Source: Mytilus trossulus
Lineage: Eukaryota
Length of the DNA: 64,000 bases
Reading direction: 5' to 3'
Assembly: GCF_036588685.1 (NCBI RefSeq)
Contig: NC_086377.1
Location: 15,128,001 to 15,192,000 of the forward strand
Each line of letters opens with the position of its first letter. The first letter of the stretch is position 1. The notes beneath the pieces are model-generated. The model saw only the letters and a list, made by a program, of their open reading frames with translations, was not told where the DNA came from and searched no databases. Of this stretch, positions 635-54,210 are shown piece by piece. A program made the position numbers and the translations under genes.

Positions 635-2232
635 ATGAAAATGTTGCAAACAGTAGTTATCGGATTATGTGTTATTGTTGGAGTTTTAACCAAGGTTATA
701 CCCATCACAAATATTTGTGAGAGTCAGGATGGTGTACTTAGGTGTTCGTACAGTGGTGAGGGGCAGTACATCTCCCTGCAAGATCTAAACAACATTCGAG
801 AGATTCGGTTTGAAAGATTTTTCCAACCATCAACACTTTTCATTGAGAATGCCAAACAATTACGTCAAATTATCATACAATCAGGATCTACGCAGTGTGA
901 GGATATTTCTTGCGACAACCCAAAAGTATTGATATCAATAGCAGGCATCCCTTGTCAAGTAAGTTGTAGACTGGATTTTATTTGAGTGTATTTTTTTGTA
1001 ATCAATTTATGTTTTGAAACGCTCCCCTTTAATTTCCATGATAACCAATTGATCAACTAATCACCAAAGAATAAAAACCAAGAACTGCAAAGGGCCATCT
1101 CAAAGGTGATAATGAAACAAGTTATCATCAACATTACAACCAACACAGCATTAAGTTAATATACTTCATTTTTTTTATAGATATTTAATAAAAGTATTTC
1201 AAATGTGAAATTAAACTACAACTATAATTTACATTGTATCAGAATTTACAAGAAAAGTTTTTTAGTTTTTTTATTCCTTCTTTTTCAGTCATCCAAATTC
1301 ACAACCTCCAGCATCACTTATACAACATCAGAACCTGCTTCCTCCCATCAGGTATGAGTATATCCTACAAATAAAATAATTTCTTTTATAGATAATGATA
1401 TCTTTTAGTATGTACATATGTAAATAAGATATAAAATAATTTCTTTTATAGATAATGATATCTTTTAGTATGTACATGTAAATAAGATAATAAAACAAAA
1501 AATATATTATTGAAACAAAATGGTATAATGATTTTTTTAAATTACAGACAGAAAGACCAATTACTTCCACTACCAGCACACCACCATCAACTTTGTCTTT
1601 ACAAAGTGTTCTCTTGGTTGTTTTTGGTGAGTTTTAATAGAACATAACTATTTTTAATATGTTTAATACATGTATGAAATGAAATTTAAAACAACTAAAT
1701 AGGATTAAACTTTTGGTAAACAATTTAACCACCAACCCTATAATTTTAGTAGACAATTGTATATCTTAGTGGTTGATTATATAAATAAGCAATCAAAGAG
1801 AGAGAAGAGAGAGTTGTATTTTAATGAATTGATAGAATGAATGGAAGTCAACACCATGTTCAACAATACATTTGTACTATATATATAGCTACAACCAATT
1901 TGGGTAGACAACTGGTAAACCTTACCACTTTCAGCTAAAGGTTGTTTTTTTTGTGTGTATGTTGAAATAAAATATGAAAATTTTATAGTAAAAATTTAAA
2001 AGAAAAGATAGATTTTAAAATTGTCTTTTTTTTTTGCATTGCAGCTTCCCTAGCTATATTCGTTGGAATCCTTTTCACCATACACTTTGTAAGGAAATAT
2101 TTACAAAAAAAATCAACTAGACCACATTCTACACTAGACCAAGTTGTAATATCAAACTTTATTAATTCATCAAATTCCAGTATAGAACTTTTTAATTTAG
2201 AAAAGATAGACAGTATAAAAAAAAACGAATAA
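635..2232 (+). CDS. Spliced type-I membrane glycoprotein, apparently intact, ~217 aa; exons 635-958, 1289-1351, 1548-1626, 2045-2232; alternative last exon 2246-2474
   Basis: Signal peptide and Cys ectodomain (CSYSGEGQY...GIPCQ|gtaagt). S/T-rich exons, GT-AG boundaries with matching phases (0,0,1). TM SVLLVVFASLAIFVGILFTIHFV followed by RKYLQKK. Confidence 0.75.
1365..1490. repeat. 60-bp tandem duplication in intron
   Basis: ataaaataatttcttttatagataatgatatcttttagtatgtacat repeated at 60-nt spacing. Confidence 0.8.
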
Positions 2233-6459: not shown

Positions 6460-7420
6460 AACTAGAAGTTATTGTTACAGTGAAACCTGTCTAAACCAAA
6501 CCCTTTCGGTTTTGGCAGGTATTCGGTTTAATCAGGTTCACAATGTATAAAATGTGATATGATTGTTCTTCATAATAAGTTTGGTTTAGACAGGTTTCCG
6601 GTTTATTCAGGGTTCGGTTTAATCAGGTTTCACTGTATACCCTAACAAAGTTCAGCAGAGAGTATTAGTATATAGAGAGCAATTTGTTTGTCTTAACTCT
6701 TGTGTTTATTCATTATCATGAATGTATGTTACAAACACAAAACAAAACAAAAAAAATCAAAAAAAACTTGTAGGTGAAAGTTCTGAAGAAAGGAATTAGA
6801 GGTTATTGTTATACCCAAATAAAGTTCAGCAGAGAGTATTAAATCAAACTTATAGGTGAAAGTTCTGAAAAAAGGAACTAGAGGTTATTGTTATATCCTA
6901 ACAAAGTTCAGCAGAGAGTATTAGTATATAGAGATCAATTTGCCTGTCTTACTCTCTGTGTTTATTCATTATCATAAGGTATGTAACAAACACAAAACAA
7001 AACAAAAAAAAAATCAAATTTATAGGCGAAAGCTCTGAAGAAAGTAACTAGAGGTTATTGTTATACCTAAATAAAGTTCAGCAGAGAGTATTAGTGTAAA
7101 GAAATCAATTTGTCTGTTTTAACTCTCTGTGTAGAAACTGCTGGTGAAATTCCTAAAGAAAGAAACTATAAGTTATTATTATACCATAACAAATTTAAGC
7201 GGAGATTATTAATATACAGAAATCAATTTGTCTGTCTACCTCTCTGTTAAGAAACTGTTGGATTATTCTTTATTCATTATTATGAGGTAAAATACAAACA
7301 AGAACATAAAAAAACCCGAAGGCGAAAGTTCTGAAGAAAGGAATTACAGGTTATTGTTATATCCAAATAAAGTTCAGCGGAGAGTATTAGTCTATAGAGA
7401 TCAATTTGTTTGACTGTCTT
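6460..7420. repeat. Degenerate tandem array, about 6 copies of core gaggttattgttata-N-aaagttcagcagagagtatt (spacing ~80-180 bp)
   Basis: Core recurs near 6465/6637 (split by a MITE), 6799, 6881, 7051, 7171, 7349. Confidence 0.8.
6478..6635. mobile_element. Tc1/mariner-pogo-type MITE
   Basis: TIRs cagtgaaacctg / caggtttcactg, TA duplication; interrupts one unit of the tandem array. Confidence 0.85.
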
Positions 7421-7454
7421 TCTGTACAGGAGTCAGTTTCACAAAAAAAAATAC

Positions 7455-7581
7455 TTAAACATTCCATTTGCATTTTCAAGAAGTCGTTGAACAAAGGATG
7501 TGTGCCACAACCTGTAGATCCGACAACAAGCATAGAAGTTGGACATTCAAAAGGTACAAGACTTTTGGTCTCCCACCACAT
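7455..7581 (-). pseudogene. N-terminal fragment of a Polinton-type A32/FtsK-like DNA packaging ATPase
   Basis: LVPFECPTSMLVVGSTGCG, then a 1-nt frameshift, then TSFVQRLLENANGMFK: Walker A with the characteristic PF-x-x-P prefix. Confidence 0.7.
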
Positions 7582-7779
7582 CTTCATTCGTATGCAATCA
7601 AACAATAAACTGATTGAAAATGTAATGGGTATTACTATATAAAGGAACCAAAAAAAACAAACAATTATATTAATATTAATATTTTTATTAGATAAAATTA
7701 CATATTATTGGTTGATGTGAACATAAAATACCACCAGCAACATTTATTATCTACTCTACAATTGCTAAATATTTTCATA

Positions 7780-8207
7780 TATGAAGATTAGTTAGTTTCT
7801 ACATGTTCTCCGTACAGCTTTGCATATAATAAAATGCCACATATCTCTCTTAAAACACCCCCTGAAATCTCTTAAAACGAATACATCTAAATGTTGTAAG
7901 TATGATAAAATCTCCTGTTCACGTAAATACCCACAATATATAATATCCATGAAACATATAAAGAATTTATGTTGTCAAAATCGATGTTACGCTGATCAAT
8001 CAACTCTTCTCCAACATAAAAAATATCTAAATCGTAGAAGTTAGAACTTTTTATAAATTGTTCATAGCAAAAATCTACAAATTGTTTTAAAATTAAAGTT
8101 GGGAATGTTACTAAGAAGTCTCTAATGACTTCTGGGGATTGACATGTTCTACTTATCCGATAAAGTGTTTCCATGGACAATTGAAAAAGGGATTGTTGTG
8201 TTGTCAT
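7780..8207 (-). pseudogene. Orphan ORF, frameshifted near 7940; N-terminus resembles a BC/SOCS box
   Basis: MTTQQSLFQLSMETLYRIS...IRDFLVTFPTLILKQF; reading continues in another frame (YCGYLREQEILSYLQHLDVFVLRDF). Confidence 0.35.
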
Positions 8208-8447
8208 TGCTAAATTATTGATAGTATATAATAAATTTCTCAATAAAGAAAAAAATACAAAAATAGTGAGATCAGATTATTCAAATAAGAATACAAAAAC
8301 AAAAAACATCAACTAAATATTCAAGTTTTGAATATCAATTACAAAATTATATTTGATTAACGACAAAATATTCACATATGGTATTTTTCTCTAAATGTTT
8401 ATATATTTACTTTTTTTTTTTCTTTAAATGTCTATACACATATAATC

Positions 8448-10286
8448 TCATTCGAAATCCGATTCGGAGGAGTCCGTTATTTCGATAACCTTCGGTCTCT
8501 TTGTGGTGAAGGTTTGCTTCTGAAATAAAAAAAAAGAAGAAATATTTTAGAAATTATAAAACTAAGAAGTTATCTCCATACATATGTAGGACTTTTAATT
8601 TATACTTGCTATTCTTACTTTTAAACCAATCAAATGGTAAATAAAAATAAAATCATGTTTGAAATTGGGTTTAAACAAGAGATGAATAGTATATTGTGAA
8701 TCAGTTTACAATCATGGATGATATAGAAAACAATCTAAACGATCTTGAAAGATCAGTGAATAGTAGAACTTTTCTTTTAGTGAAAATTATAGGTATATCT
8801 CTGATCCTATATTCCACTGGAGTTTCTATGGTAGCGGTTATAGAAATGGTTGGTGATCGTTCAAATTCAACATCAATATTTCAACAATTTCAGCTTAAAC
8901 GACCTAAACCGATCTTAGTTCCATGCATAGAAAAGTTAAAGTTTGCGATTGTGGGAGATGTATTTGTAAGAGTGTGTGCAAACATAAATGCGATAGTTGA
9001 CATTAGACAGTACAGAAACCAAACACCAACATCAACGGGGATATTTTTATCTACAACTCAGTATGAACATTTAAAAACAACTATCTTGCAAATAGACGAT
9101 TCTATAAAAAACATTACTAAAACAAAGTGAGAGAAAAAAATATCGAACTTGTGTATGTGTAATATGTAAACGTTTAACTAAAAAAAAACAAAAAAAAACA
9201 AACAAACATTGATAATAAAAAGTTATTCAAAATAGTGTTTCTTACCTCTTCTTCACTTCCTATAGTCTTGTGGCGACTTTCTATCGCTTCACTCAGAACA
9301 GATGGATTGTTCTTAACATTTGTCAGTTTCCGTTTTCGTTTGGTGATCTGAAGAAAATAATAAAAAAAAGTTACAGGAGAAATGTAATTCAAAGTTTTGC
9401 TTACATCAGTTTACAATATAAAACCAATTTTCTATTTAGGAAAAAAAAGTTATTAATTATCAATGAAATTCATATAAATAGATTTGTTATCCTCACCTTG
9501 TTGGTTGATTTCACGGGAGATGTAGCTACTTCCTGCTGTGGTGGTTTTTGTGTGGCGATCTACAATGGAAAAAAATATAACATAAATATCAAACATGACA
9601 TTGGAAACAATTTCAAAATATAGTTGAACAATTTAATGGATATGCATTAACTTTTTTTTGTAAACGTGAAAATTACACACATACACTTACATTTCTTAGT
9701 AAATGAAAATCTCTTTACTTTAAAAACTACATAATTCAAACAAAAAGATAGTATAGCATGTTATGAAAAAACAGAGATGGGTGATGTACAAAATAAAGAT
9801 AGTTAGATAAAAATAAACTTACATCGTAGTCTGCGCTTTTCTCTTCCTTTTTGGGATATAATCTTTTATTCTTAAAAGAAAAAAACATAAAATAAACAAC
9901 TACGCTTAAATCTTTGAATTTTTAAAAATTATTTGAATATTTTCAACAATACATACAACTTTCAAATGAAGACGAGTAAACCTTCTTTCTTGTTTTTATG
10001 AAAATCTCACTAAATGTTTTTATGAAAAGAAAAAGTCACAACTACATTTAGTAATTGAAATAAAAATTTAATCTACCTTATTTTGAATCACTTCCTTCGT
10101 ATCCGCAAAATTTCTTGTAAAGACTTCCATTAACTGCTCCATCTCATCTGCTCCTAATGAAATGGATTTTTGGTTTGGAATGTTCTCCAAGTGAACGTAA
10201 ACATACCCCTTCCACGAATTTATTGTAACTTTTTTGTTCCTACCAAATTTTAGTGTAGCCTTTGACTGGTCTTGGTTAAACTGCAT
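8448..10286 (-). CDS. Intact 5-exon PC4-like protein (164 aa); exons 10286-10077, 9870-9823, 9559-9497, 9347-9246, 8519-8448
   Basis: All four introns are GT-AG and phase 0, giving an open frame to TGA. Exon 1 FGRNKKVTINSWKGYVYVHL...SISLGADEMEQL fits the PC4 fold pattern. KRKRK NLS, acidic tail, upstream TATA at ~10366-10373. Confidence 0.75.
8714..9130 (+). CDS. Membrane-anchored PC4-domain protein nested in intron 4 of the antisense PC4-like gene
   Basis: Hydrophobic segment FLLVKIIGISLILYSTGVSMVAVI, then the PC4 signature VDIRQY...PT..GIFL...QYEHL. Confidence 0.7.
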   Translation: MDDIENNLNDLERSVNSRTFLLVKIIGISLILYSTGVSMVAVIEMVGDRSNSTSIFQQFQLKRPKPILVPCIEKLKFAIVGDVFVRVCANINAIVDIRQYRNQTPTSTGIFLSTTQYEHLKTTILQIDDSIKNITKTK

Positions 10287-11134: not shown

Positions 11135-12546
11135 GATCCTCTACCATTATATTGTGTTGATGTTTTGTGGTGTTTTGGTGTCCCAACAATTGTAAAGCGC
11201 TATGGCACAATCTAGGGGGAGGTTCACGGTAGGAGGCCGGAATCAGCAACGAGAAAGAAAACCAAACTAGAATATCAAGAAACTCGCTATTAATTTAATA
11301 AAGAAAACATTAAGATAAATACAATATAATTTCAAAGTACACATTTTGAAGTCAAAGTAAGTAAAAACAATGAAAAAATAGTACAACAATTCAGATTTCC
11401 TATTAAATAATAACAATAAAGATTACTGTATAAATAAACCTCTGAATTAAAATATTAGTAACTTAGAAACTTTATTTATTTTTTCCAAAATAAAATTAAA
11501 AGAAAAATAGTTTTAAATTTAAATTATTTTCAAAAACAAGAGACTCACCTAGAATATCAAGAAACTCGCTATTGATTTCATAGCGGCTTGATAAGTTTAT
11601 ATACTAAGTTCTGAATGTCCTAGCAAGTAACAAACAAAAGAATGTATGATTTATGAGTTATCGACAACATGTATAATACAAAAATAAAGTTGCAGACGTC
11701 GCTTGACCGTTGTCCGAACTTTTAAGATGCTCTTTATAACTTTACTAGACATATATATATAATTTGGTAACTGCTGCAGTCTCATTGTCCAGACAAATTG
11801 AATAGTTTATAAAAATGCTTGTTTGACATAACGCTTGAAAAATGTATAGAACATTTAAACAATAATTCTATGTAAAATAGTTTACAAAGTAGAACCCGCA
11901 TACATTAACTAATTAACCATATGAAATAAAATAAACTACATTTTTCTATTACAATAATCGCTCTCCCTTTGAAAAAGAGATTGTTCCACCAATCAAAATA
12001 TATAAACACAAAGAAAAACACTCAATAAAAACACCTTTTTTTTTCTTTTTCAAGAATCATAAAATACACAATGAATAATAAAACATGTATATAGTACAAT
12101 TTAAATATTGGTATATATAAAAATGAATATTATATATCTAATGATCTAAAGGCCTTTAACTATTTACAGATGTACCTTAAGATACTGATTCTAATGATTA
12201 TTCTGAGATTATACACGTCGTATTCTAAATATCATTAAAATGCAGTAAACTTTTATTTACGTTAACGATTTTTCCACGATACTTAATTTGCCTCAATGGA
12301 CAGAAGAAGTGGGTCCTTTTTCATTAAAATTCTTATATATTTTATAAATACATTACAATTAACCTTTGGCTATGAGCTAATACAAGTTTTTCGCGTTTAT
12401 ACGCGCACTTGAATCTAAGTTAGGCGATTTGGGGATTATCTGATAATATAAGAAGGAAGTCTAACTTGAATGGGTCATCTTTGGCAAAATTGTGGAAATT
12501 AAAATTTTATTAAATGATAAATAAATGTTAAATGTAAATTTTCTAT

Positions 12547-13068
12547 TTAACGCAAATAGTTTCTGACTTGTCTCTGATAGGATTTTTGCAATCTTTCAAA
12601 ATAATCGATATATAAACTAATAAAAGGGGGTAAATCATTATGTGGAATTTCTATTTCTGGATTGTTAAGAAGAGTATATAAACAGGATGACTGTAGAGTT
12701 AAATAAGAAAAGGGGTCATACACGTAGGAAACTGTATAATTAATCGCATCTAAATAATCTATGTCATCATGATTGTTTATCAATTTGTTCCATACTTGAT
12801 GTGGCGAAAGTTTAAATAGATCCATATCTGGTAACTCTGAAGAATTTGTTGATGGTAATGTTGTTTGTCCTGTTGTTGCTCCTGGTCCTGTTCCTGACGT
12901 TGTTGTTGTTGTAACTGATTGTGTGGATGTTGAGACACTCGACGCAGCAGTAGCGATATCTGTTGTGGCAGTTGCGGTTGTAGTTAAACTTGGATATAAC
13001 GCAGCAAAATGTTGTGGCGTCTGTAACCGGGAATTTCCTGCAACAGATATCAGTGTTATAGAAAGCGT
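12547..13068 (-). pseudogene. C-terminal half of the same orphan protein (T-rich linker plus helical domain)
   Basis: Open frame to a natural stop; the 5' side is cut at the junction with polB (13068/13069). Confidence 0.65.
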
Positions 13069-16000
13069 TTTTCTGGTGGTTTGGTAAATGTTAAAAATGA
13101 GGATCACAAATGTTTCTTGTGGAGCATATTAGCAGGTCTACATCCAGCTCAACGAAACCCTAATCAAGTTTTACATTATAGAAAATATGAACACTCTATG
13201 GATTTAACCGGAATCGACTTCCCCGTTTCATTGTCTAAAGTTGAAAAATTTGAAAAACAAAATGACTTATCCATCAACGTGTTCGGGTGTGAAGATGGGG
13301 TTGTATTTCCACTATACCTTTCAAAAATGGACAATGGATATAAAGAAATTATTTTATTGTACTTATCAAAGGAAAATAATTCTCATTATTGTTGGATCAA
13401 GAATTTCAGTCGTTTCCTTGGACACACACGAAAGCATCACGGTCAACTTCACTATTGCCATCGATGTTTGCATGGGTTTATTAGAAAAGATTTGCTAGAT
13501 AAACACCGACCATACTGTGACAAATTCGATTTTCAAAAAATTGAATTACCAGAAGAAGGGAAAAATATTCTTGAGTTCAAGGATTTCCATAAAAGTATGC
13601 ATGTTGGATTCACGATTTATGCTGATTTTGAGGCACTGACTCGGAAAATGGATTCATGTTTACCAGATCCGAATATATCATCTACAACACATTGCACGAA
13701 ATTTGAAGCTTGCGGTTATGCTTATCAAGTCGTATGTACCAACAGTAACTACACCAAACCCCCAGTTGTTTACAGAGGTAAAAATGCTGTCGAACGTTTT
13801 TTTGGAGACATGTTTAAAGAAGAAGAGTACGTTAATGGTATTTATGGTGACATTGAACCTTTGATCATGACCGATGAAACAGAAAAAAAAATCAAAAGTG
13901 CAACTCATTGTAATATTTGCAGCGGCAAGTTTTCTGATGGTCTCATCAAAGTCAGGGATCATTCTCACATTGGTGTGACTGGGGATCGATATTCTGATAA
14001 CTATAGTAATTACAGATCAGCAACTTGTCAGGCCTGTAATCTGAATTTGCAAAATCCATCATTCATCCCCATATTTTTTCACAACTTTCGCGGATTTGAT
14101 TCCCATTTACTGATAGAAGCTGCCGGAAAATACAAGGACAAGAAGATCGTGTGTATTCCAAATAATATGGAAAAGTATATTTCCTTCTCTGTTGGAAATT
14201 TAAGGTTCTTGGATTCGTACCAGTTCATGTCGGAAAGTCGGAGAGGCTGGTAAAAAATTTAGCTGTAGACGGTCTGACTCATTTTCACCACTTTAGAAAA
14301 GCTTTTCAATCCGATGAAATAGCCAAATTGCTACTACGTAAAAATGTCTATTGTTATGACTATGTAGATAGCCATGATAAATTCGAGGAGACTATGTTAC
14401 CCCCTAAAACAGCTTTCTACAACACCATAAAAAGAGAGCATTTTTCTAATGATGACTATGATCACGCACAACGTGTCTGGGCTGCTATGGACATGAAAAC
14501 ACTTGGTGATTATCACGACCTTTATATATTAACTGACGTTTTATTGCTGGCAGATGTGTTTGAAAGATTCAGGACAATGACAATAGAATACTATGGACTT
14601 AATGCCTGTTATTTTTACACAGCCCCTGTACTTGCTTGGCAAGCTGCCTTAAAAATGAGTGGTGTCAGTTTAGAATTGTTAACATCTCCAGACATGTATA
14701 ACTTTTATGAACTCGGTTGTCGAGGTGGATTAAGTATGATTAGTCAAAAGTATGCTAGGGCTAACAATAAATATGTTAAAGGTTATGACTCTACTAAACC
14801 TAGCTCATATCTGATGTATTACGATGCCAATAATTTATATGGTTGGGCTATGTCACAACCTCTCCCAACTGGAATGATGCGATGGTTAGATGCGGGTGAA
14901 ATACAAGAATTCAACTTGTTAAAAAAAACAATTGATGGTCCAAAGGGCTACATGCTTGAAGTCGACCTGGAATACCCAAATGAAGTACATGAAAATCACA
15001 ATTCCTACCCCTTAGCCCCCTCACACAAGCACGTGGTGGACGAAGAGCTTTCACCATACAGTAAATCGTTGAATGAAGATTTATATGGTGAACACCGGAA
15101 AAGACCTAAAACGATCAAACTGATACCAACGTTGGAAAACAAATGTAACTACATTACCCACTACAGAAATCTACAGTTATATATCAAATTAGGAATGAAA
15201 ATCAAGAAGATCCATAGGATCATAGAATTTGATCAATCTCCCTGGCTAGCTAAATACATATCCTTTAATACGAAGAAACGTCAAAAATCGAAAAATTGCT
15301 TCGAAATTATTATTTTTAAATTAATGTGTAATTCCGTCTTCGGAAAAAACATGGAAAACCTAAGAAACAGAGTTGATATCAAACTCGTCAATAGCGAGCG
15401 TAGTTTAAGAAAATATACTAGCAAGCCGTCGTTTGAGCGGTTTCAAATCTTCAATGAAGATTTGGTTGGAATTCAAAACAAGAAGACGAATTTATTACTC
15501 AATAAACCCGTCTACGTGGGAGCGAGCATATTGGAACTTTCTAAAATCGTTATGTATGATTTTCACTACAACGTAATGAAGTCAAGATATGGGAAAAATA
15601 TCAACCTTCTCTTCTCCGATACAGATTCTCTGATGTATGAAATTTCCACTGAAGATATTTATCAGGATATGATGACGTTTAAAGATTATTTTGATACTTC
15701 GGCATATGATGTAGAGAACAAACTCCATTCAACAGTTAATAAAAAAGTTGTTGGGAAAATGAAAGATGAATTATCTGGTAAGTGTTTTATTCAAATAGGC
15801 ATACCCGCATATTTAATTTCAAACAATAAATATAAAAGTCAAGTGAAAGTAAATTATCTGTACTTGTTCATACTTTAATTGTTTTCATACTTTAAATGTC
15901 AAATATGTTGGGTTTTTTTTTTTTTTACATTATAATTACTATTTGATTTTATCCTTTTCAAGAGTCCCTATTACGGAATTTGTAGGGTTGCGTCCAAAGA

Positions 16001-16314
16001 TGTATTCCATAATCTACGATGTTGATGGAACACAGAATGAAAAACGAACAGCTAAGGGAATAGCCAAGTGTGCCGTAGACCAACAAATTAGACATGAACA
16101 TTATAAACAGTGTTTGTTTCAAAACAGAATGACTTTAAATGATATGAACTTGATTCGTAGTGATAATCACATTCTATATGTGAATCACATTAGAAAAACT
16201 GGACTGTGTAACTCTGATGATAAGCGGTTTTGGAAAAATTCCATACACAGTTATGCGTTTGGACATTATACAATTCCAATTGTAAATAAAAGTTGTAATG
16301 TATATTGTAAATGA
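13069..16314 (+). pseudogene. polB: Polinton/adintovirus-type protein-primed family B DNA polymerase (endonuclease-VII/HNH-containing lineage), 5'-truncated, 1 frameshift, 1 intron
   Basis: vOTU-like KCFLWS...SHYCWI; ExoI YADFE; Endo-VII CNIC...RDHSH...CQACN; ExoII HNFRGFD; ExoIII YILTDV; Pol A DANNLY, B KLMCNSVFGK, C DTDS; then LRPKMYS and KGI. Frameshift at ~14239, intron 15778-15961. Confidence 0.93.
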
Positions 16315-16430: not shown

Positions 16431-17017
16431 TCACTGTAGTTGGCTTAAATACTCCATTGGGTTATAATTCTCCTCTCCCGGGATTTTAGGTTTTTTGTTT
16501 ATCATATCACCTTCTTTACTGTCCATGGATCTCTTATTAGAATGGTTAAGCACTCTTAAATGTTGCGCTGTGTAGGGTGGTGGTGGAGGCGTGGCTTGAG
16601 ATGTCAACGGAAGCAACCCTTTTGCAGTTTGTGGTGAATGGTGTTGTGGAGGATGCTGCATAGGTTGTTCTTTTTCCTTAAAAGAAATGAAATTAAATTA
16701 GTCACTTTTGAAAAAGTTGATATGTTTAGATTGTATTTTTATTGGAGTTCGACTGAATTAAAGATGGATAAAAATGAAAAACTTACCTCTAATTCATTAA
16801 ACAGTTGCTCCAACGCTTCTTTCATGTTAACTAGTTCACAGAATTCATCATAACCAAGAGAGCATCTTCCCGGGTTTCTAGGATTGTTGTTGTATAAGTT
16901 TATATAAAAATAGTCATTCACTTTTGTTAATACTATAGCCATATTCCTCCCGAAATTGGTACGCATCTCCAAATTTCCCTTTATACTATTTTTCTTTGCA
17001 AAAGCGTAACTTTCCAT
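16431..17017 (-). CDS. Intact 2-exon divergent PC4-like protein (158 aa); exons 17017-16787, 16676-16431
   Basis: Phase-0 GT-AG intron. FGRN...YFYINLY...CSLGYDEF aligns with the 10286 gene. Pro-rich tail with PPPPY and KKPK; TATA at ~17084-17092. Confidence 0.7.
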
Positions 17018-18282
17018 TATGTTTATTCTAAAATTAGCAGTATATGAAGAATAAAAATATGTAGTTTTGAGTTAGGTGTTGGGTTTATATATAGTATTAC
17101 AAAAAATATTTGGGAGGGTGGGGTGGGTATTTAAGCTACGTCCCTCTTCATTTGCCCAATTGAATTGATGAATGCATATTTGAATACATGTAGATCTATT
17201 CCTATGGGAGTACAGTTCTCTTCAGGGTTTTCTGACTCGATGTTCTCACGGTCTAGAAAATGGTGATACATTTAATGTCAGAATTAATTTTTAATACTCT
17301 AGCTTATTAACTAATTAAAACAAAATGGAAGATCTGAACATGGGAAAAGGATAACCCTAGAAAGGCTTTTCTAATTTATTATAAATCATCATCATGTACG
17401 GAATAATTTACAGTTTAAAGTTAACCATCATATGATTTATCAAAACAGGCGCTTAACTGTTTGAGTTTCTTTGGTGGGTCAGGTAATTATATATATATGC
17501 ATATCTAACTTGAAATTATGTGGTATGGATATTTTATTAAAATATACTGACGGATTTTGTAATGTATTTTATGGTAAAAATTTCCATTCTTAATTTTGAA
17601 CTCGGACTTCTCTTGAACTGTATTTTAATTGTATGCATTTTGCACCCGTCCTAAGTCGGGAACCTCTAGCCTTTTTTTTTTTTTTGTCTTGTATGTAGGG
17701 TTGATGTCTCTTTGACACATTCCCCGTTTCCATTCTTTATTCTATTAATCCCTCATTTACTGGATAACACAATGTCAATTTGCGCAGAAATAGAAAATCA
17801 TACTCAAAACATATGAAAAGATTAAAAATTATCAAAATCGCACTATGTTGATATAAACGAACAGAAAAACCACGTGGGATAACAGAACATTTAACAAAAA
17901 CTACCTTAGCCATTGAAAGTCATTTATTGTTTTATAAATTTCATCATAGGATATAGTCATATATCACGAGTTGTCTCTCTCTAAACACAAACGATTGACT
18001 AACACAACAAATAACATAGTGTGACAAACAAACTCATTCCATATAATGAACAGATAAAAAAAACCTGTCATTTTATGCAACAACCAAACTCTTTTGTGTT
18101 CAACGAAATATAGAGGGGTGGGGGGCTAAATAATCCTGTTCATTGAGTTGTGGCTAATCTTACATGGTAGACAACTCTATAGTTAAAATACCATTCGGAA
18201 CCTAGATTTTAATAGATTCATCAAAGCCCCTAGAGAGGTCAAGATTTCCCGCGGATTTTAACCATATGACAATGTCTGAAAA

Positions 18283-21094
18283 AATGGCTGTCTCATATTT
18301 TCTGTGCTTATTAATAATATATTTCCAAAGTGCTTGTGCAGTTCGATACGATATAACGGAAGTATGTGAAAAGGAATTTGACTTAAACTTTAAGTTCATA
18401 GGGTATGTATGTTCTTTCCGAGGAGAGGGGACATACATTTTCAAGGATCGGGGGCACTCCGAGTCTGGTGACGCAACCATAAGCTTTGCTATGATCAATA
18501 TACAAACTTTTGTTTTAATTCAAACACCAATCAGAAAACTGGAAATTCGACGAGGGGTTATGGAACTGTGTTCAAACATTTTACTACCAACAGAGGAATT
18601 CTTATAACTGTTAACGGACAGGAATGTGTAAGTGTGTCTCCTCACATAAACAAATTGTGCGTACACCCGAAAGACAGCGTGTTCCCTCCAAAAAAGAATG
18701 TTCAAATAATTTCTTTTCTTTTTCTATATTTATGAACGGGTATTTGTTAGCTAAGGGATGTTTTAAAGCTTTACTATCAATGCATGTCCCAAGTCAAGAG
18801 TCTCTAATTTTAGTGAACTGATCGTTGGTTTTCTGTCATTTGAATTTTAACTGGTCTTTTGGAGTCGTAAAGCTTTTATACTTTGCAGTGTGAGTCAAAT
18901 TATTATGCTCTGTGTTGAAGTCCCATACTGTGACCTATAACTGTATAATTGCTTACATCAACAACATTATGTCTGGAGAGTTGTTTCATTAGCAATCATA
19001 CCATACCATAGTTTTCTGTTCAATCTGAACTTGTTTGTGTTGTTTTCTGTTCACACTGAAAAAACATTTACTGACTACATTGCATCACATTGATTTCAAT
19101 TAAAAAACAAGAAAATATTTACTCTTTAATCTACATTTTTCTCTCAAAATGATACATCAATTGGTATTATATATGTATTTAATAGTTTTCTTAAATTTTG
19201 AATGTTTATAATTGGCACTATTTTTCCATTGTCCTTCCTAGAGCTCGAACAGTCAAATGGTTTCCATATCTGAAAAAAAGTTATAGAAATTAATTACTGA
19301 ATAAAAAATCTTCACAAATAAATTTTAATACCAAAAACAATTTGTATAAGAAAGAAAAATTTATGTATTTGTAGAATTTAATAGAGGATAATCCTCAATC
19401 TTTAGCCTGTTGCACAAATTGTCTTAAATGTGTAGGTGTGTATTATCTCTAGTGCATGCCTTAGTATTTTTTTTTTAATATATTTTATACATCTTCATCA
19501 GTTCAAATATTTAACTAGAAAACATTTTATTTATCCTAACAGGCAACTGATCATGATGTATCCTCCATAACATCTACGGCAGACAAATTAACCATGATTC
19601 AAACTGCCACTCAAACCATGGAAACCATGACAGAAACAATGACCTTTACAGTAAGTACAATTTAAATCTTAGAACTATATTGTGTGTATAGACACACACA
19701 CACAAAGGAATGTTAATATTCACAATCATGGATATATAGTTACCAGTAATAAGATACATGTAGCAACCCTCAAATAAACTGAAAGTGTGATAGAAATGTT
19801 GTTTAAAATTCAGCTTTTATATGCTGATCATTTTACGAAGCAAATAATTTTTTCTTCAACAAAACAGTGTAAATACTTTTTTCTTACAGGTATTGGAAGC
19901 GCAGGTGTCTTCTTCAAAGGCAGCAGACAAGACTGCTACGTATACTTATGTAAGTAATTAAGCAAATATGCGTACCTTAAATACCTTCTTCTGTTTGCTC
20001 ATTTACATCTGTTACATCGGTTACTTGATCTACATGTACTTCTGTTACTAGCTCTGAATATGACGGTGGTGGATTCAATATAGGAGAATTTGATCGTGAT
20101 GAGGTACTTTGACTATCCAGAATATCTTCCTCATCAAAATGAATCTGTGGTAGCTGAATTGTTCTGTTCACCTTCTCCCTACAATTATAAAATAATTACA
20201 ATTCCATTATTTCTTTTTTTAAATTGTAAAATTCTTTACAATGCATTTCTGTTTCCATTTTCAGACTGATAATCAATCCTTAGGCTTGGATGATGAAAGA
20301 TTGGCATGGTTGTATTCAACTGTAAGCTTGATTATTGGTAAATATTTTTAAAATTACATAGTGTGATCATAGAAATGTGTGAAAATGCCACGCAAACATT
20401 TATTTGGTATACCTGTTTGTTTTTAAAAAACACTAGATGCACACCATATCCTGATATTAAAATACAAGTATTACATACATAAATGATCATATTAAATGAT
20501 AGCAATCCACCTTTTAAGGTTTCTAACAAACTTCATGATTAACAGGAAATAACTAATTTTCCCCCTTGTTTTTTTCAGTCATTGCTATCGCCCTGATTGT
20601 CTGCTGTTACAGATGCTTTAAAGCCAGAGCCCGCAATTCATCAAAGAAAACTAACCTGTTCGAACTTTCATCTGACATACATTTTGAAGTACCTGAAGCC
20701 ATTCAGATAGATTAATTTTTAGAAATAAATTTTTTGAATATGCATTCTAACATTTTCTAAGTCATGTGGAAGTCATTATTCTGAATTTCAAATATATTGA
20801 TTCTTTCAGTATATGATTTTGCTGACTCTGCTTATATTACATCAACTGTTTCCAGAAAATGAATTTGTCATTCAATAAAACCAACTTGTAAGGCATATAC
20901 CAGCTATAGCTCGTGGCATTAACGGGAACAGACAAAATAATCAACCAGAACCTCAGCACAATAACCAAGACGGACAAAATAATCAACAAAATGTTATTCA
21001 AAATGTTAATAAAAATGTTAATCACCCTATCCCACCTCAGAGGTTAAGAAGATCTGATCGTATAAAACGACCAGTGCAAAGGTTGTCTTTGTAG
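18283..21094 (+). pseudogene. Spliced type-I membrane glycoprotein, paralogue of the 635 gene; exons 18283-18627, 19543-19650, 19890-19949, 20265-20321, 20810-21094 (alternative last exon 20579-20715)
   Basis: Signal peptide, CSFRGEGTY, NGQEC|gtaagt; T-rich exons; TM LAWLYST|YMILLTLLIL. Frameshift at ~18597 and a premature stop at 20876. Confidence 0.65.
19977..20530 (-). pseudogene. Antisense TM exon (20412-20530) and PPxY-containing tail exon (19977-20178) interleaved in introns of the 18283 gene
   Basis: GLLSFNMIIYVCNTCILISGYGVHLVFFK with a gtatac donor; ttgtag acceptor then ...NPPPSYSEL; phases differ by one base across a homopolymer. Confidence 0.45.
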
Positions 21095-30160: not shown

Positions 30161-31536
30161 GTCAATACAATGACACGAAGGTATCCTTTCATACCTGACA
30201 TAGTCAACAATTTCGATACCTACGAAGAGTTAATTCAATGGACTCTAGAAAACCAAATGTTAGACCACCCTTTAGTAAAGCAACGCATAAATACTGTAAA
30301 CTATATTAATCAATTTGAAAATGCAGAGGATCTAACCGAATGGGCAATACACCATAGCCTACTGAACGATCGACAGGTTCTAAACAAAATTCAGACTTTG
30401 TATACATGTAAATGGTGTAAAAGGAGATCGGAAAGTACACGTGAATTAAGACTCCACGAACAGGTTCATTTGATGTGTGATGACATACTACAAACTGGAG
30501 TATCATCGGACAACATTACACACACTGATAACCACATTTTGACCAATAATACTTCCGACATTTCTGTTTCTACATATTCACAGAAGGGTGCAGGGGTTAC
30601 ATCAGAACCTCCCTATATTTTTCGTCAATCTGGACAAAAAACGTTTTCTAAAAATTTGGCGACAGGAACAACGTATAAAGTCAAATTACAGACGTGTGGA
30701 AAGGAAAAAAATTGCGCGACATCTTTAAAGATATACAACAAATGTTCGAGGACGTTCTGGTCAAAGCAAAGGGAGGTGAACAGGACCTAGGGCGTGTCAT
30801 TGTCCGTCATACAGATTTGAATCACCCCATCGTCGTACCCCTGGACAAATGGTCTAACATAAATGCAAACACGGTCATGACTGCCGTAGAAAATGTATTG
30901 AACAGCGACGAGACTCTGAAACTGTCTGATCAAACAGAGATTCTTGTCGGCAATATTAGTATCCCTAAGGGGAGTGGCAGAGTACACGTCACACAACTAC
31001 AAGGGCCTCAGAGTTCCATTGCATTAAAACATCAATGTTAAGGGTTGCTAACAGCGATCACATGTGTCTAGCCACGGCCGTAGGAAGATGTTTTGTCAAA
31101 TTATGTAAGATTGTTACGCTGGAAGAATTTAAACGAATAACCGAAAACGACCCTCCTAATATGAGCGCGACAATGAAAATGGTAAAACACAGAGTGATTA
31201 CCAAAAGTTACCTTGCACACATAAAATCGCCTTCTAATAATAAGTACAGACAAATTATGTCAAAGGCACTGTGTCGCAACCAACCTGCCCACAGACAAAC
31301 CGTTGACCATCACGGACATCAAACCATTGGAGGATCTTCTAGACGTCAATATTTTAGTTTTATCGGCTCGATTGGGAAATAAATTTTGTCGAGTGGCAAA
31401 CGTGACAAACCGCAGTAACATCTATCTGTATCTGACAGAAAACGACGATGGTGTGGGACATGTTGATGGTATCGGAAACATCAATGGATTTTTCAATTAC
31501 GGATATTTTTGCGAAACGTGTTTAAAACGTGTTTAA
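30161..31536 (+). pseudogene. polB: N-terminal region (zinc finger, terminal-protein and vOTU-like regions) of a second-lineage Polinton pPolB; three frameshifts, 3'-truncated
   Basis: C2H2 finger CKWC...HEQVH; QKGAG and PKGSG protease-site-like motifs; VENVLNSDE; SDHMCLATAV (Cys) and GHVDGI (His); YFCETC; splice acceptor just upstream of the ATG. Confidence 0.75.
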
Positions 31537-35766: not shown

Positions 35767-36119
35767 TTTGGCAGGTAATGATAACCCTAAAATAAGCCCG
35801 GATGAATCCAAGTTCGACCCTTAATATTATTTTGAAATTCAAACAGATATATAATAATTAAGTGATATTAAAAAAAATTACAAATTCAATTAATATTAAA
35901 ATATTTTTATTTGAAAAAAATATTATCAACATATTGTCCATTTATGGTGATACCGTAAACGTTAAAGTCATTATTTTATTAATGTTATTATCAATATATG
36001 GTATCAATCTTTTCATATATTCCCACTGTCTCTGACTTATTGTAGATTTAAAGTTTGAAATGATGACAACTATATTGTACTTGTTGATACACAATGATAG
36101 ATTACCATTCTCAGGAAGA

Positions 36120-36540
36120 TCAATTTTTTTTCTGGTATTGACACGTCAGATTTTTCGACTGGTCGACATCTAATCCTAAACTTGAACGTTTTATACAGTC
36201 TGAAGTTTTTGAAGATTTTGAATGATAGATATTACTGGTTACAGTTAAAATTGCAATTGTCATCGCTACAAGAATGGCACTCGTGAAAATCTTCATAACT
36301 TTAAGATGAAAATCTTTGTTGTTGTATATGGAATTAAGACTTGAGTATATGGTAGAAGTTTTTAACATAATATGCGTTGTTCCATTGTCTTCAATAAATT
36401 CCTGTCGTGATGTCAGTTTAGTTTCGATGAACAAGTTAGAATGATCATTATGAAGTTCAATTGACGTGTATATTAATAGGTCACAGTCGAGTAAACAAAT
36501 TACTGGTACGTATTGGAAACGTTGTTTTGCGGATACATTT
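36120..36540 (-). pseudogene. Orphan ORF with one TM segment
   Basis: IFTSAILVAMTIAILTVTSNIY; the frame is open upstream of the listed start. Confidence 0.35.
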
Positions 36541-36824
36541 TCTGTCTAACGTTAAACGAAGGGCGAAAATTGTTGTAACAATCCTAATTTTACACTACTA
36601 AACTTTAAATGTCTATACATAATCCATTCGAAATCAGATTCTGAGTTCCATTGAAGATTAAATAGATATATTTTTTTTTACTTTTTCATATTTTTTTTAA
36701 TGAAACTTGAATGGGACTTCTACGATAATGTTTAATAGGGAATAGCCTTTGCATATTAAAAGAATATACACTTCATGTTGCTTTAATGTGATAAACCATG
36801 TACTGCACTGAGCCGAACTTTTTC

Positions 36825-37050
36825 AGGAACAGTCGTTGTCCAAATTTCCCCCAGAAACTGTTGAGACACAGTTTGGCAAGACTACGTAAACCTGGATTTA
36901 CCTTGATGCTGTCGTAATCTAAGTTTTTGCCTTCATTTTCTGTATACAATCGAATGTATTCTCGTTTTTCTTCCTCCGTCCGACAGTGTTTGGGGAAACC
37001 ACTGGCTTCCTGTTTTATTTTAAGAAACAGCTGGACGTAGTCATTCATAT
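36825..37050 (-). pseudogene. polB: Internal fragment of second-lineage pPolB (motif B region)
   Basis: FLKIKQEASGFP...I..NPGLRSLAKLCLNSFWGKFGQR, the hallmark Polinton pPolB motif B. Confidence 0.9.
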
Positions 37051-37540
37051 ATCCGTTGACATCAACAGGACTTGGCGGCGGTTGTCTGAAACCATTCAGG
37101 CTAGGGTGTATACAAGATGCTGATTGTTTATAAGCAACTGCTTGAGGCTGAAGAAGTGCTGGTGGAAAAGCGTAGGCAAATGCACTTGAAGGCTGATAAG
37201 TTGTCGCCTTACTGGATGCTTCCTGCTGCTGAATCCTATGTGAAGACTCCTAATTAAAAAAACACATATAAAAGCGAAAGGTTCTGTACAGATTAAAAAG
37301 GGTCGTAAAATTTCAATTGAACGGAGAAAAGTTTAGAAGTTAAACAAATCAATAACTTACCTCGCATGGGCTGCTTTTTCTGCCGGGAAGACACTGCTCA
37401 GGGAATCAAGATCTCTTCGGATTGATAAAATGAAATCTAGTTCACCAAGTCCTAGACATATCCCATTAAAACGGGCCTTCCCGAACTTATTATCGTATAG
37501 ATCTAAATAGTAAAACTGTTCATGTTTCCTATAAACTAAG
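37051..37540 (-). pseudogene. 5'-truncated 2-exon PC4-like gene (exons ~37540-37361, 37250-37051) fused to the pPolB fragment
   Basis: LVYRKHEQFYYLDLYDNKFGKARFNGICLGLGELDFIL aligns with the 17017 gene; gtaag donor, tag acceptor, Q/P-rich exon 2. Confidence 0.6.
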
Positions 37541-39065: not shown

Positions 39066-41076
39066 TTAAAGATGCCCCACATTGGGCATGGAGCCCCATT
39101 GGTAACAGGGAGGTCTTTCTAGTGCCATGCCTTGGGAGGTTCGGAGAAAGGTCCTTCTTCTTCCTAGTCTTTGTCTGTTCTTCCTTCTCCTCAACCCTCA
39201 CTATCATAACTGATATGAAAGTGAGCAACACACCCACCACTGCACTGATGAGTTTTTCTGAAGAAAAAAATACTTATGATTATACACTACAGAGAGTTTA
39301 GTGTTTAAAAAATTAAACACTCAACTTTAAATAAAAATTTTCATTTTTTTTAAATGAACTTTCTATACTAATGTGTTGCATAAAATATGTTTCTTCTCCC
39401 CACCCTTCGTTTACCACTTTTAAAGCTTGTGCGTTTCTTATTAACCAAGAATATGCATTGCATGAAGGATTACTTTAACTTATCTTGTGCTACTTTGAAT
39501 GGAGAGTTGTCTCATAGACATTCATACTACAAATATTTTTTATATGTAAAGTACCTTTATTTTTTATATGTAAAGTACCTATGTTTTCACAAACCATATA
39601 TATATATATACCCATAAGGAAACTTTTCTAAAAATCTAATTTATCTCTCCATTCAAGTGTTGTCTCTACATGTTCAAACAGTGCAAAAAATAGTATTTTC
39701 CTGATCACTATATATATATGACTAGTTATACTAGTGAAATGAGAGTAGATGAACATTAAATTAGATCTTTAGTTTTCTCATTTGAATTGTTTTACATTGT
39801 TATTCCATGACCTGTTATAAATCAATATGTGGTATGGGTTTTACTCATTGAAGAAGGGTATATATGCTGACCTACAGTTCTTAATTTCTGTTTCATTTGG
39901 TCTCTTGTAGAGAAAATTGTCTGATAAGCAACCATACCCCGTCTTTTTTCTTATTGTCTCTTGATGTTTTCTTTAAATTCTTTTTACATTAATAACATAC
40001 CAAGAATTGACTCCTCACAGTTTGCAGTGGTGGGTAGGTGCTCATTGTGGTGCTTATGGTTGTCTTCATGTACCACAGGATACCATTTCACTTCTGGTTC
40101 CTCCTTCTTATCTTTTACATCATTAATCACTGTTACAAAATAAATAATAGGGAGAAATTAATACATGTTTTCATGTACTCATGATACACTAGAACAACCG
40201 GATGTTTAAAATGTAATCCGCGGTAACGTTTCAAAACATATGTAATCAAGTTCATTGATAAATATTACTTCTTCAATTATTTAGTTTACTTAACGGTTTG
40301 CCATTAAAAATTTAAAATAATAGTTTTAAGAAAAAATCTTGAATAAAATAAGTTGAATGATCCTTGATTGCACCTCTGAGCTTTTCCGACGTTTATCGAA
40401 GCGGAATGGGGATCATCTCAAGGTTTCATGAGGTGTTAATGTAACATGTCATCAATCTTTCGAAATTTTGTTTCAAATTTTGAAAACAATTACACACATC
40501 GGGCAGTTTTCTGTCATCGCTTGTATAGTGTGACAATATGCTTATAATTTGTAATTAAGAGAAACTTTATTCCAAATTTCAAATTTGGAAAAACATAATC
40601 ACAAAATATACTGTATCCTAAGCCATCTATTAGAAATTAAAAATCGATTTCGAATAAAACCTTGAAACATAAATATTCTTTTCAACAGGTAGGGGTACAG
40701 TATGATTATATGGACAGGAAGGTGGCAGGGTGCAAAAAAAAAAGGGGGGGTTAATAATTGATCAAAAAATAAGATACAATACATATTTGAATAAAGATAA
40801 AGATTCATAATAAGTCTTACTCCTGATCTGGCATCCTGATGTGGTAATGTAATGGCCAGGGTCCACTATCAGCCTTGTAAAGGTTGACCCACAGGTTACA
40901 TGCGTGATAAGGGTTCTAATTTTGACACATTGCACCCCCTTTCCACATCTAAGAACTGTTATGGAGCTTCTCACACAGTGCATTGACCCTCTTGGACAAT
41001 CATCATCCTGTCTAGTACTGTTGATGAGAGATACAATTAGAAAAATGGTCGAAACAAAAATGGTAAGGCGCGCCAT
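39066..41076 (-). pseudogene. 3-exon type-I membrane protein with Cys-rich ectodomain; exons 41076-40821, 40129-40001, 39257-~39066; one frameshift after the TM
   Basis: Signal peptide MARLTIFVSTIFLIVSLINS, 6 Cys, phase-1/phase-1 GT-AG introns, TM LISAVVGVLLTFISVMIV; the shifted frame gives LRRRKNR...RPPCY...stop. Confidence 0.65.
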
Positions 41077-43760: not shown

Positions 43761-44003
43761 ATGGCCAATCAGTGTATGATTCTGTTCTTAATTCTCATTA
43801 TATTAGACAGGGGTGTGGCAATTGAGCTATAATTTTTTTAGTTGACAATGATTGGCATGTAGGAATGCAGCTTTTACTTGGCAAGTGATGAAATTCACAA
43901 GTAATCAGACAATGATTAATGTGGACCCTGCTATAATTATTTGTCTAAACTTGAGAAGGAAAAAGTCAAGACTCTTACTAGATGTAAATTAAAAATAACA
44001 TAC

Positions 44004-45632
44004 CTTTGTCCATAAGATATAAAAACTTTCCAACTTTTGTAATTTCTTGAACAGCCAATGGACATTGGTAAACATGTTTATTGATTTCTTCTGAATGGCA
44101 CATGTGCCTATAAAAAGCCTGCCTGTCTGTCTCTGGTACATCCAAGTTTGCAAACACAGTTGACATGTAATGTCTCATTTGGGTGGCGTTAATCTCTTTT
44201 GTAAGCCCTGCCTGCTTACATACTTTGTTTACACTATTCCATCCATTGACATGAAAGTCTGAGCCTTTGATGTGTGGAAATACATATATATTACTAGGGT
44301 TTACACCTGCCATCTCTCTCATCTGTGGATCAGTAAGGTTTTTTTTATAGCTTTCCAAGAATCTTTGGGAATGAGCATTGGGAGCATATGGCACACACTG
44401 TTGCCAGACTGATATGACAATTTATATATTTCAAATAATTCAAGCTCCTCTGATGTTTTGGCTTTTTTCTTGTGGGTTTCAGATAATCAGACACCATCTT
44501 TTGCAGCATCCCATTCCTTTCTAGTAAGTCTACTTGGTTCTCCTCCCCGCTTGGCATTGAACAGTTTAATTCTGGCTACCACAAGATCTCTTAGCCGGGG
44601 ATATTCATTCATATCTAAAATCTTGTACGGGTCATCCATCTGTGCAATTCCAGTCAGAGTGTAATTCCGCAATCTTCTTACATCATCATCAAGAGGTAAA
44701 TAGTGTGGTCGTCTAAGGTTTTCCTGTCTATTCTTAATACAATTGTATTCAGCTCCATCGAATATCTCCTTTCTGTAGTAATCAAATAATGTTTTGAATT
44801 CCTCAATTTTTACCAGCTCATCTTTCTTACCCTGCAATAAATGCTGCCCTTTTATGTGGCTAATAACATTTTTCAAAAGATGACCTACATTTTTTTTTAA
44901 TCCAGATTTCATACCTCCATCTTCTTTTGTAGCCATCACATGGATAGCATCCATAAAAGTTGTAAAGTGTTCCATTTTAAACATGTCTAATGTTGCATTT
45001 ATGTCTTTGCCAATTTTAGCTGCCTCGCTTTTAAAACAAAAGAAAAGATTTGCTATCATCCTCATGTGCTTCATTATATTTTTTCTGTTCTGTGGGTTTT
45101 TGTCCTTCCTTGCTGCAAATCTTCTGTAATTGTGAAATCCAAAGTCTTTTAGGTATTTATCAGTTTTACAAAACTTTCCACTTGTATCATCCAAAAAGCC
45201 ACTTAAGATGTCTGCCTTATATTCTTCAGAGTAACCATCATCTCTAACAGCAGAAAGTGGAATTGCAGTCGGTGTAATTGTTGTTCCCTCTGCTGCTGTA
45301 CATTTGATTTGGTGAATCTTAAAGTGTTCTTTTACAAAATACCCCTGACATGAGGAACACATAGCCCTATTTTCCATCACATTTCCTTCCCTCTGTTTTC
45401 TTGCCTGCCTTTCCTTAACTATTTGATTCACATCAAAGTCCTCCTCTTTCATTAGCATCAAGTTGTACAGGTGATAGCCTCTCCTTTTCAAATTGCATAA
45501 AACCTGATTTCTGTCTTTTACTGGAAGCTGCTTTTACCTCATCGTTGTCTTTATGTTTAGTTAGAATATGCCTGCTTAATCGACTTTGAAATATACCACA
45601 AAAAGGACATGGTCTTTTTGGCTTTCTTGTTC
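44004..45632 (-). pseudogene. Tyrosine recombinase-like protein with N-terminal zinc fingers; disrupted exon
   Basis: CPFC...RHILTKH, CSSC...HQIKC; catalytic R in LFNAKRGGE, TQMRH, M(C)HS, HVYQ. Stop at 44487, frameshifts and an internal deletion; bounded by AG/GT splice sites. Confidence 0.75.
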
Positions 45633-53528: not shown

Positions 53529-54210
53529 ATGGAATTATACAAGGTGCTCTGTTTGTCTCTCATGTTAAATACATCTGTTGCATATTTCTTGCTAAACCAT
53601 AACACTTATGAAGGTGTTGAAAACCCCTCAACATTCGAAATTGTGCAAATAAATTGCCAGTACAGAGGTCCGGGGATATATGTATTCCATGGATTAAAAA
53701 CTATCGAGAAAGTGACGATGAAAAGACTAATGGAGGAGGCTCATGTGAGAATTGAAGAGGGGAGCTCACTGGAGCAATTTATGATATTGACGGGGCCTAT
53801 GAGTTATTGTTATTTGGTGAACGCACCGTCTAGTGTACTAGTTATGATACAGCAGACACCTTGTGTAGGTATCATTTACATAAATCAGTTGTTTTGGTTT
53901 AACTTTCAAACAAAACTGGGTGCTACACTTGGAACTCAAAATTAAGTAAGAATATTTTGATTTTCCTAAATTGAGAGCATATGCTATGGAGGTAATGCTT
54001 ACAAAACTAACAACAACTATATCTAAATTTTGGTTTCCAAGACATGATTATGTGAAAATGTATTATTCAAGATTTGTATGGGTAAAATTATATATACCAT
54101 TATAGTTTAAAAATATTTTATACAGGGTGATCAGACCACAATTACAAATAGTGGTGCAGAAAAGACAACAATCTTTTCTACAAGAAACGGTGTTACTGCA
54201 GTGAACACAG
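53529..54210 (+). pseudogene. Third member of the glycoprotein family; exon 1 53529-53864 intact, T-rich exon 2 from 54126 degraded
   Basis: Signal peptide, CQYRGPGIY, IQQTPC|gtaggt (same intron position and phase as the paralogues), tacag|GDQTTITNSGAEKTT. Confidence 0.65.

Follow-up and report, generated by a model that had tools for sequence, protein, structure and literature searches.

The PC4-like domains described so far all belong to intracellular nucleic-acid binders, according to the accessible part of a review of the group (PMC7549692), and the main text of that review contains no mention of membrane, extracellular, secreted or disulfide. The fold, four strands followed by a helix, is represented by the C-terminal domain of human PC4 (SUB1) and by fungal MoSub1 (PF02229; PDB 1pcf, 6ycs, 4bhm). 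In human PC4, R70, R86, R100 and K101 contact the DNA backbone, F77 and W89 stack on the bases, and alanine at either of these two aromatic positions abolishes binding, as reported in the accessible part of PMC4350104. The bacterial PC4-like proteins SP_0782 and YdbC carry a DNA-stacking tryptophan at the start of strand 2 (PMC7145681, accessible part).

Mavericks or Polintons (adintoviruses, polintoviruses) carry accessory genes, and the available part of PMC8502044 lists several which are membrane-active. PC4 is not mentioned among the Maverick accessory genes listed in the available parts of PMC8502044 and PMC10748475, and it is absent from the main texts of PMC11131425, PMC11161782 and 10.64898/2026.10.13.758929. 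Literature listings and the opening lines of abstracts contained neither a membrane-anchored PC4 protein nor a PC4 protein in mollusc Mavericks; an annotation in supplements, subscription journals or Repbase is possible.

The window, the whole stretch of 64,000 nucleotides from Mytilus trossulus analysed here (NC_086377.1, positions 15,128,001 to 15,192,000), contains a single open frame of 138 aa at 8714..9130 on the forward strand. By the reading of the frame and by family membership, it encodes a hydrophobic run followed by a linker with a sequon and by a domain of PC4 fold, and we refer to it as TM-PC4. A preliminary description made from the window alone had proposed such a membrane-anchored PC4 protein, and the architecture proved real. 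Judged from the sequences, it is conserved and brings together a known fold and a known element class in a new combination.

All features of the protein lie on the forward strand. The N-terminal tail (residues 1-23, 8714..8782) is predicted to be cytosolic, the tails of the family showing no sequon excess; it measures 23 aa in the window copy versus 31-64 aa in the other members of the family alignment A6. Lys24, Gly27 and the hydrophobic run of residues 25-43 form the predicted signal-anchor (8783..8845), with a 19-residue Kyte-Doolittle maximum of 2.17 over residues 25-43. A hydrophobic segment of about 24 aa had been announced: the segment is present but shorter, as residues 20-43 are split by K24 and the uncharged run is 19 residues long. 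The linker (residues 45-70, 8846..8923) carries the sequon N51-S-T and is predicted to be N-glycosylated, linker sequons being found family-wide. Lastly, the domain with its four strands and helix (8924..9115) is assigned from profile, model and structure matches. It contains Cys71 and Cys88, the sole cysteines of the protein, which agrees with the two cysteines first pointed out in the C-terminal part. Three sequons are present, N51 (NST), N102 (NQT) and N133 (NIT). The two within the domain are not conserved and solely N51 fits the conserved pattern.

The PC4 signature is weak when the window copy is taken alone. Pfam PF02229 matches it with E=0.0059 and 16.5 bits, below the 25-bit gathering threshold, and phmmer against the PDB gave E=0.6-1. 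The clear signature of the preliminary description is secured at the level of the family, where a 12-row profile (A2) matches human PC4 with E=1.3-1.6e-7. Furthermore, a relative of the L052/L053 type clears the PF02229 threshold with 40 bits, and PF02229 matches 6 of the 16 members of alignment A3 at E ≤ 0.1 (best 1.1e-9). AlphaFold predicts four strands and a helix both for the window protein (mean pLDDT 58, domain 72-77) and for its relative P0006 (domain pLDDT 77-92). Structural searches with these two models returned PC4 and MoSub1 as top matches; in one search the best E was 0.016 with no row at E ≤ 0.001, which is not significant alone, and the other gave a middling Z of 7.1 with an rmsd of 2.4 over 61 residues. 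Homology of the family domain to the four-strand-plus-helix fold of PC4 is secure at family level.

The equivalents of human D84, R86, G102 and Q109 are largely kept in TM-PC4. Unlike human PC4 and MoSub1, TM-PC4 has a run resembling a membrane anchor, a sequon-rich linker and a cysteine pair, its loop between strands 3 and 4 is five residues shorter, the W89 and R100 equivalents are lost, and it is encoded by a mobile element. A fold search of BFVD produced weak phage matches, none at E ≤ 0.001, and feature searches of the ESM Atlas gave no usable match. One structure row of the ESM Atlas is an unnamed 152-aa cluster of 51 members, mostly eukaryotes and most commonly Arthropoda, which aligns over the helix and PC4 parts (TM 0.42/0.44, residues 39-159); it is a possible candidate for a distant TM-PC4 outside the molluscs.

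The preliminary description recognized a membrane PC4 protein and missed its placement: the gene is an accessory gene of a Maverick/Polinton and not a variant of the host Sub1. In the window, TM-PC4 is accompanied by a head-to-head ORF at 7887..8207 (-) (tblastn E 1e-7 to its counterpart beside TM-PC4 in the intact C1 Maverick), a convergent small soluble PC4-like ORF at 10068..10286 (-) (Pfam PC4 E=0.0004; E 9e-13 to its C1 homologue) and a pPolB-like gene in several broken frames at 13027..16314 (+), which is 42-45% identical to a 1267-aa ORF of the C1 Maverick. The last has 164 genome matches and no Pfam match at E ≤ 0.01; from its motifs, we take it to be a protein-primed B-family DNA polymerase. 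This arrangement repeats the C1 cassette of head-to-head ORF, TM-PC4, convergent small PC4-like ORF and polymerase, and the same order is seen by eye at L183, including an ORF similar to 7887..8207 at the same place. The window element is broken, with a broken remnant of a Maverick packaging ATPase at 7387..7647 (-) and a split polymerase, and no matching pair of element ends was found around the window copy. A second TM-PC4 copy, broken by stops and a frame break, lies at 35975..36416 (-) beside what is left of a different Maverick polymerase.

Better preserved elements occur elsewhere in the genome. The C1 element is bounded by AGTAGT ends, carries inverted repeats, shows a 6-bp target duplication and spans 18,309 bp. 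Its TM-PC4 gene is present in 9 copies, and since these differ by 0-1 base, the C1 family is young. An element on C7 which holds a relative encodes an integrase, an A32-like ATPase, an adenain-type protease, pPolB and a soluble PC4 protein. In the C8 element, TM-PC4 lies between a CARD-PC4-PC4 gene and the integrase. TM-PC4 has the same fold and mobile-element context as the soluble proteins with tandem PC4 repeats which these Mavericks encode (CARD-PC4-PC4, PC4-PC4), one of them being its neighbour in C8, and as the phage and bacterial PC4-like single-stranded DNA-binding proteins (T5, YdbC, SP_0782, BPSL1147). Unlike TM-PC4, both groups are soluble, keep the basic motif and the tryptophan and are without hydrophobic run and cysteine pair.

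Several further observations were made in the window. Counterparts of the 7887-8207 (-) ORF are found at 11491-11994 in the L163/C1 element and at L183:2110-2714. The ORF begins with what we take to be a BC-box-like motif and is a possible candidate for a ubiquitin-ligase adaptor. The 10068-10286 (-) ORF and another at 16739-17017 (-) are short, divergent single-repeat PC4-like frames with homologues in the C1, C9, C5 and L183 elements, and each seems to represent one exon of a spliced gene. Remnants at 35975-36416 (-), 30170-31524 (+) and 36773-37147 (-) belong to a second Maverick with the other polymerase type. Frames at 635-985 (+), 18266-18607 (+), 53529-53945 (+) and 40762-41076 (-) have signal-peptide-like starts and cysteines and are apparently first exons; they have homologues in other Mavericks of the genome and no Pfam match. 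A possible TM-encoding exon lies at 1978-2232. The ORFs at 43978-45458 (-), without Pfam match at E ≤ 0.01 for 44490-45458, presumably resemble the tyrosine recombinase of Crypton-like elements.

Genome searches and a profile scan of regions revealed at least 25 copies with an unbroken anchor and domain frame in 8 subfamilies, together with many broken ones. Public searches led to the acceptance of 9 of 1096 and 8 of 782 candidates as relatives; the named ones come from Mytilus edulis and M. coruscus and have no assigned function. A single-sequence homologue search had 0 of 7 candidates accepted, and scans of viral contigs and of metagenome contigs returned no TM-PC4 relative. Two alignments were used. 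A4 has 22 rows; P0001, which nearly duplicates L007, the truncated L082 and two fragments, P0009 and P0017, were omitted from it. The 13 rows of A6 share 14-58% identity (median about 30%) and comprise 11 non-redundant A4-based rows and two very divergent members found later; here the close relative P0015 stands in for L069, which has Tyr at C88.

The homologues carry the hydrophobic segment, and their domain is of the PC4 type; these were the two points on which the preliminary description could have failed. The hydrophobic run (19-residue Kyte-Doolittle maximum 1.66-2.27) and C71 are present in all 22 rows of A4, and C88 in 21 of them. Across the 13 rows of A6, K24, G27, C71, C88 and Q116 are invariant, an uncharged run of 19-33 aa is always found, and Q116, L120, K121 and I127, which lie in the helix, are the best kept. 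The soluble PC4 frames of the same genome have no such run, hydropathy upstream of their domain reaching at most 1.28. Using the pairs of measurable dS, as many comparisons between subfamilies are saturated, we obtained dN 0.27 versus dS 1.63 (L004/L007) and dN 0.43 versus dS 1.76 (L053/L058). By these rates, the TM-PC4 subfamilies are under purifying selection.

Two trivial origins were rejected. An accidental fusion of frames within a single decayed copy does not account for 25 unbroken copies in 8 subfamilies under purifying selection. The view that the hydrophobic run is the decayed first repeat of a protein with tandem PC4 domains was dismissed on the grounds that the run is conserved and uncharged, has invariant residues of its own and models as a helix. 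In a tree of 46 domains (62 columns), 24 TM-type domains are placed together on the same side of a weakly supported branch (61/36), and the tree names no donor. The TM-PC4 domain probably goes back to a copied soluble PC4 gene, one of those that the elements themselves carry.

The side of the membrane on which the domain resides can be approached through the distribution of sequons. Every A6 member (13/13) has at least one N-x-S/T in the linker, between the anchor and the first Cys. In total, 24 linker sequons were observed versus 8.8±2.5 expected, a number reached in 0 of 20,000 composition-keeping shuffles, a count that overstates independence and significance given that members share sequons by descent. 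The N-terminal tails contain 6 sequons versus 9.5 expected and the domains 3 versus 5.2. The asparagines are distributed accordingly: 24 of the 42 linker asparagines form part of a sequon, compared with 6 of the 49 tail and 3 of the 57 domain asparagines. The middle residue of the linker sequons varies, and Ser and Thr are both used. Because N-x-S/T is kept at about 30% median identity and on one side only, linker glycosylation appears to be selected. The family-wide run, the sequon excess and the cysteines, C88 being Cys in 0 of 16 soluble repeats at this column, support the type II orientation of the preliminary description, that is, a predicted type II glycoprotein whose PC4 domain faces the lumen or the cell exterior. 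An invariant Lys precedes the run, yet the net charges of the 15 residues on either side are about equal.

The same distribution argues against the replication tether that had been suggested at the outset. Here the PC4 domain would face the cytosol or nucleoplasm and hold replicating element DNA at a membrane, and pPolB replication indeed produces ssDNA. Furthermore, every PC4-like protein described binds ssDNA (PMC7549692, accessible part). However, the sequon excess is found towards the PC4 domain and is missing from the tail, which speaks against the location that a tether needs; the invariant cysteine pair is absent from the soluble repeats, the binding residues are eroded, and soluble PC4 repeats whose motifs are intact are already available in these elements. 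We regard a tether as highly improbable.

A second question is whether the run is retained in the mature protein. It could be a long cleaved signal peptide, the product being a secreted PC4-fold glycoprotein: the last residues of the run are small in several subfamilies and could suit a signal-peptidase site, and the hydrophobicity of the run is moderate. However, a long internal uncharged run set in from the N-terminus is more typical of an uncleaved signal-anchor. Because the run of TM-PC4 comprises 19-33 residues without charge and starts 23-64 residues into the protein, it fits an anchor better; the tail and K24/G27 are conserved as well. Secretion by cleavage is therefore very unlikely in our opinion.

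The ssDNA-binding surface has changed substantially. Mapped through the family profile alignment, the window copy retains R86 alone of the six human PC4 contacts, and its domain has a net charge of 0. In A6, the W89 equivalent is Trp or Tyr in none of the 13 rows, the R100 equivalent is basic in 2, the K101 equivalent in 5 and the R86 equivalent in 12. C88 sits where human PC4 has R75, and the hairpin of strands 3 and 4 is partly deleted in three subfamilies. The soluble tandem repeats of the same genome have R86 and R100 in 16 of 16 and K101 in 14 of 16; W89 is found in all 8 second repeats, and a single Tyr occurs among the 8 first repeats. R70 is mostly absent from the soluble element repeats too. 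On this comparison, the ssDNA-contact residues of the family are eroded, and the TM-PC4 domain probably no longer binds DNA. The DNA decoy or uptake factor of the preliminary description loses likelihood with this erosion and partial deletion of the surface which it would require.

Some binding of nucleic acid or polyanion by TM-PC4 is nevertheless possible from the residues that persist. With the same lumenal or extracellular topology, the domain could serve as a decoy or attachment factor for heparan sulfate or for extracellular or endosomal DNA. D96 and R98, the equivalents of human D84 and R86, are kept in most members, and the domain is basic in most of them (net charge 0 to +10). The F77 equivalent is Tyr in 7 of 13 A6 rows, and in 8 of 13 an aromatic residue stands at the start of strand 2, as does the stacking Trp of SP_0782 and YdbC (accessible part of PMC7145681). 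Against such binding stand the loss of the W89 and R100 equivalents, the three subfamilies lacking part of the binding hairpin, the cysteine at the R75 position and the window copy itself with one of six contacts and no net charge. We judge a binding function fairly unlikely.

Instead we favour, with modest confidence, a Maverick accessory type II glycoprotein in which the PC4 fold has become a dimeric host-facing module and is not an ssDNA binder. Preceded by the invariant lysine, the internal hydrophobic run would serve as a signal-anchor that is not cleaved and would insert the protein into the ER as type II. The linker would then be N-glycosylated, and Cys71 and Cys88 would form a disulfide; in the AlphaFold model of the window protein, C71 misses the cross-strand register with C88 by four residues. 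To our knowledge, all single-repeat PC4 domains pair through the helix, and two TM-PC4 chains would pair in the same manner. As suggested by the neighbouring genes, the dimer could offer a new binding surface to a host protein, either within the secretory pathway or on the outside of the cell, most likely for the modulation of host defence during a virus-like phase of the element. A host-interaction module is plausible because some element ORFs next to TM-PC4 have signal-peptide-like starts and these, like the CARD-PC4-PC4 protein, fit such a role.

The soluble CARD-PC4-PC4 protein deserves a separate description. It is encoded in Mavericks at L090:9011-9823 (+) and L010:5775-6860 (+) and ends in a Cys/His cluster; in the L090 protein, Pfam detects CARD with E=1e-17 and PC4 with E=2e-18. 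By joining a death-fold domain and tandem ssDNA-binding repeats, the protein may connect replication with innate signalling. At L102:3887-4612 and 8347-9945, a zinc-finger-like Cys/His region, which we take to resemble a PARP-type finger, precedes PC4-like domains, and this arrangement recurs within a cluster on C8. Rearranged elements were also noted. In C7:33759180-33776785 (L009-L011), inverted repeats of 1.5 kb which are 99.8% alike hold a protease and the C-terminus of a capsid protein, and a C9 element has a similar internal inverted duplication of 1.3 kb. At C5:11007700-11012100 (L016-L017), a 186-bp tandem array related to window positions 7978-8164 and 8425-8505 lies beside a deleted TM-PC4 copy; this satellite has apparently grown from element sequence.

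The element context also allows a structural role, in which TM-PC4 would sit in the membrane of Maverick particles that are enveloped or cloaked by vesicles and would serve budding or attachment. The gene occurs in elements of both polymerase types, often beside the ATPase or the integrase-capsid block, and the proposed fusogen of nematode Polintons suggests envelopes in some of these elements (PMC10748475, available part). However, the gene was found in 1 of 5 regions chosen by polymerase alone, which makes it an accessory and not a core gene; its position within the element varies, and the elements examined showed no membrane protein of fusogen size. A particle component is quite unlikely for these reasons. 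TM-PC4 shares the element class and a predicted action at membranes with the membrane-active accessory genes of Mavericks (available parts of PMC8502044 and PMC10748475), whereas its fold is unrelated to that of the nematode fusogen PC1, PLA2X, GasderminX and the cupiennin-like proteins.

The fate of the window copy differs from that of the family. Contigs from four other sequencing runs cover the ORF. Among the 40 differences listed (of 51), 30 fall in the ORF and comprise 9 silent changes, 20 amino acid changes and 1 stop; the pN/pS of those listed is 0.67 and not different from neutral (p=0.21), and some of the differences may stem from paralogues. Frameshifting indels also occur among the covering contigs. 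The window copy is probably decaying inside its broken element, as far as these differences indicate, and the family is not. In runs X1, X2 and X3, the ORF was uncovered despite high word shares. Since every run covers non-coding stretches and none shows clear splicing, the runs look like DNA and are uninformative on expression.

The combination of a fold moved across the membrane, kept under selection and eroded at its binding face would represent a clear case of fold exaptation. It also bears on whether animal Mavericks act outside the cell. We know of no role for a secretory-pathway glycoprotein in simple intragenomic transposition, and its retention in young multi-copy elements would point to a host-facing or particle-associated stage. 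In a bolder version, which we consider possible but doubtful, TM-PC4 would be a disulfide-stapled, glycosylated surface protein on infected cells or enveloped Maverick particles and bind a host receptor or extracellular nucleic acid. If this were true, it would be the first extracellular PC4-like domain and would provide direct evidence for an intercellular, virus-like stage of Mavericks in molluscs.
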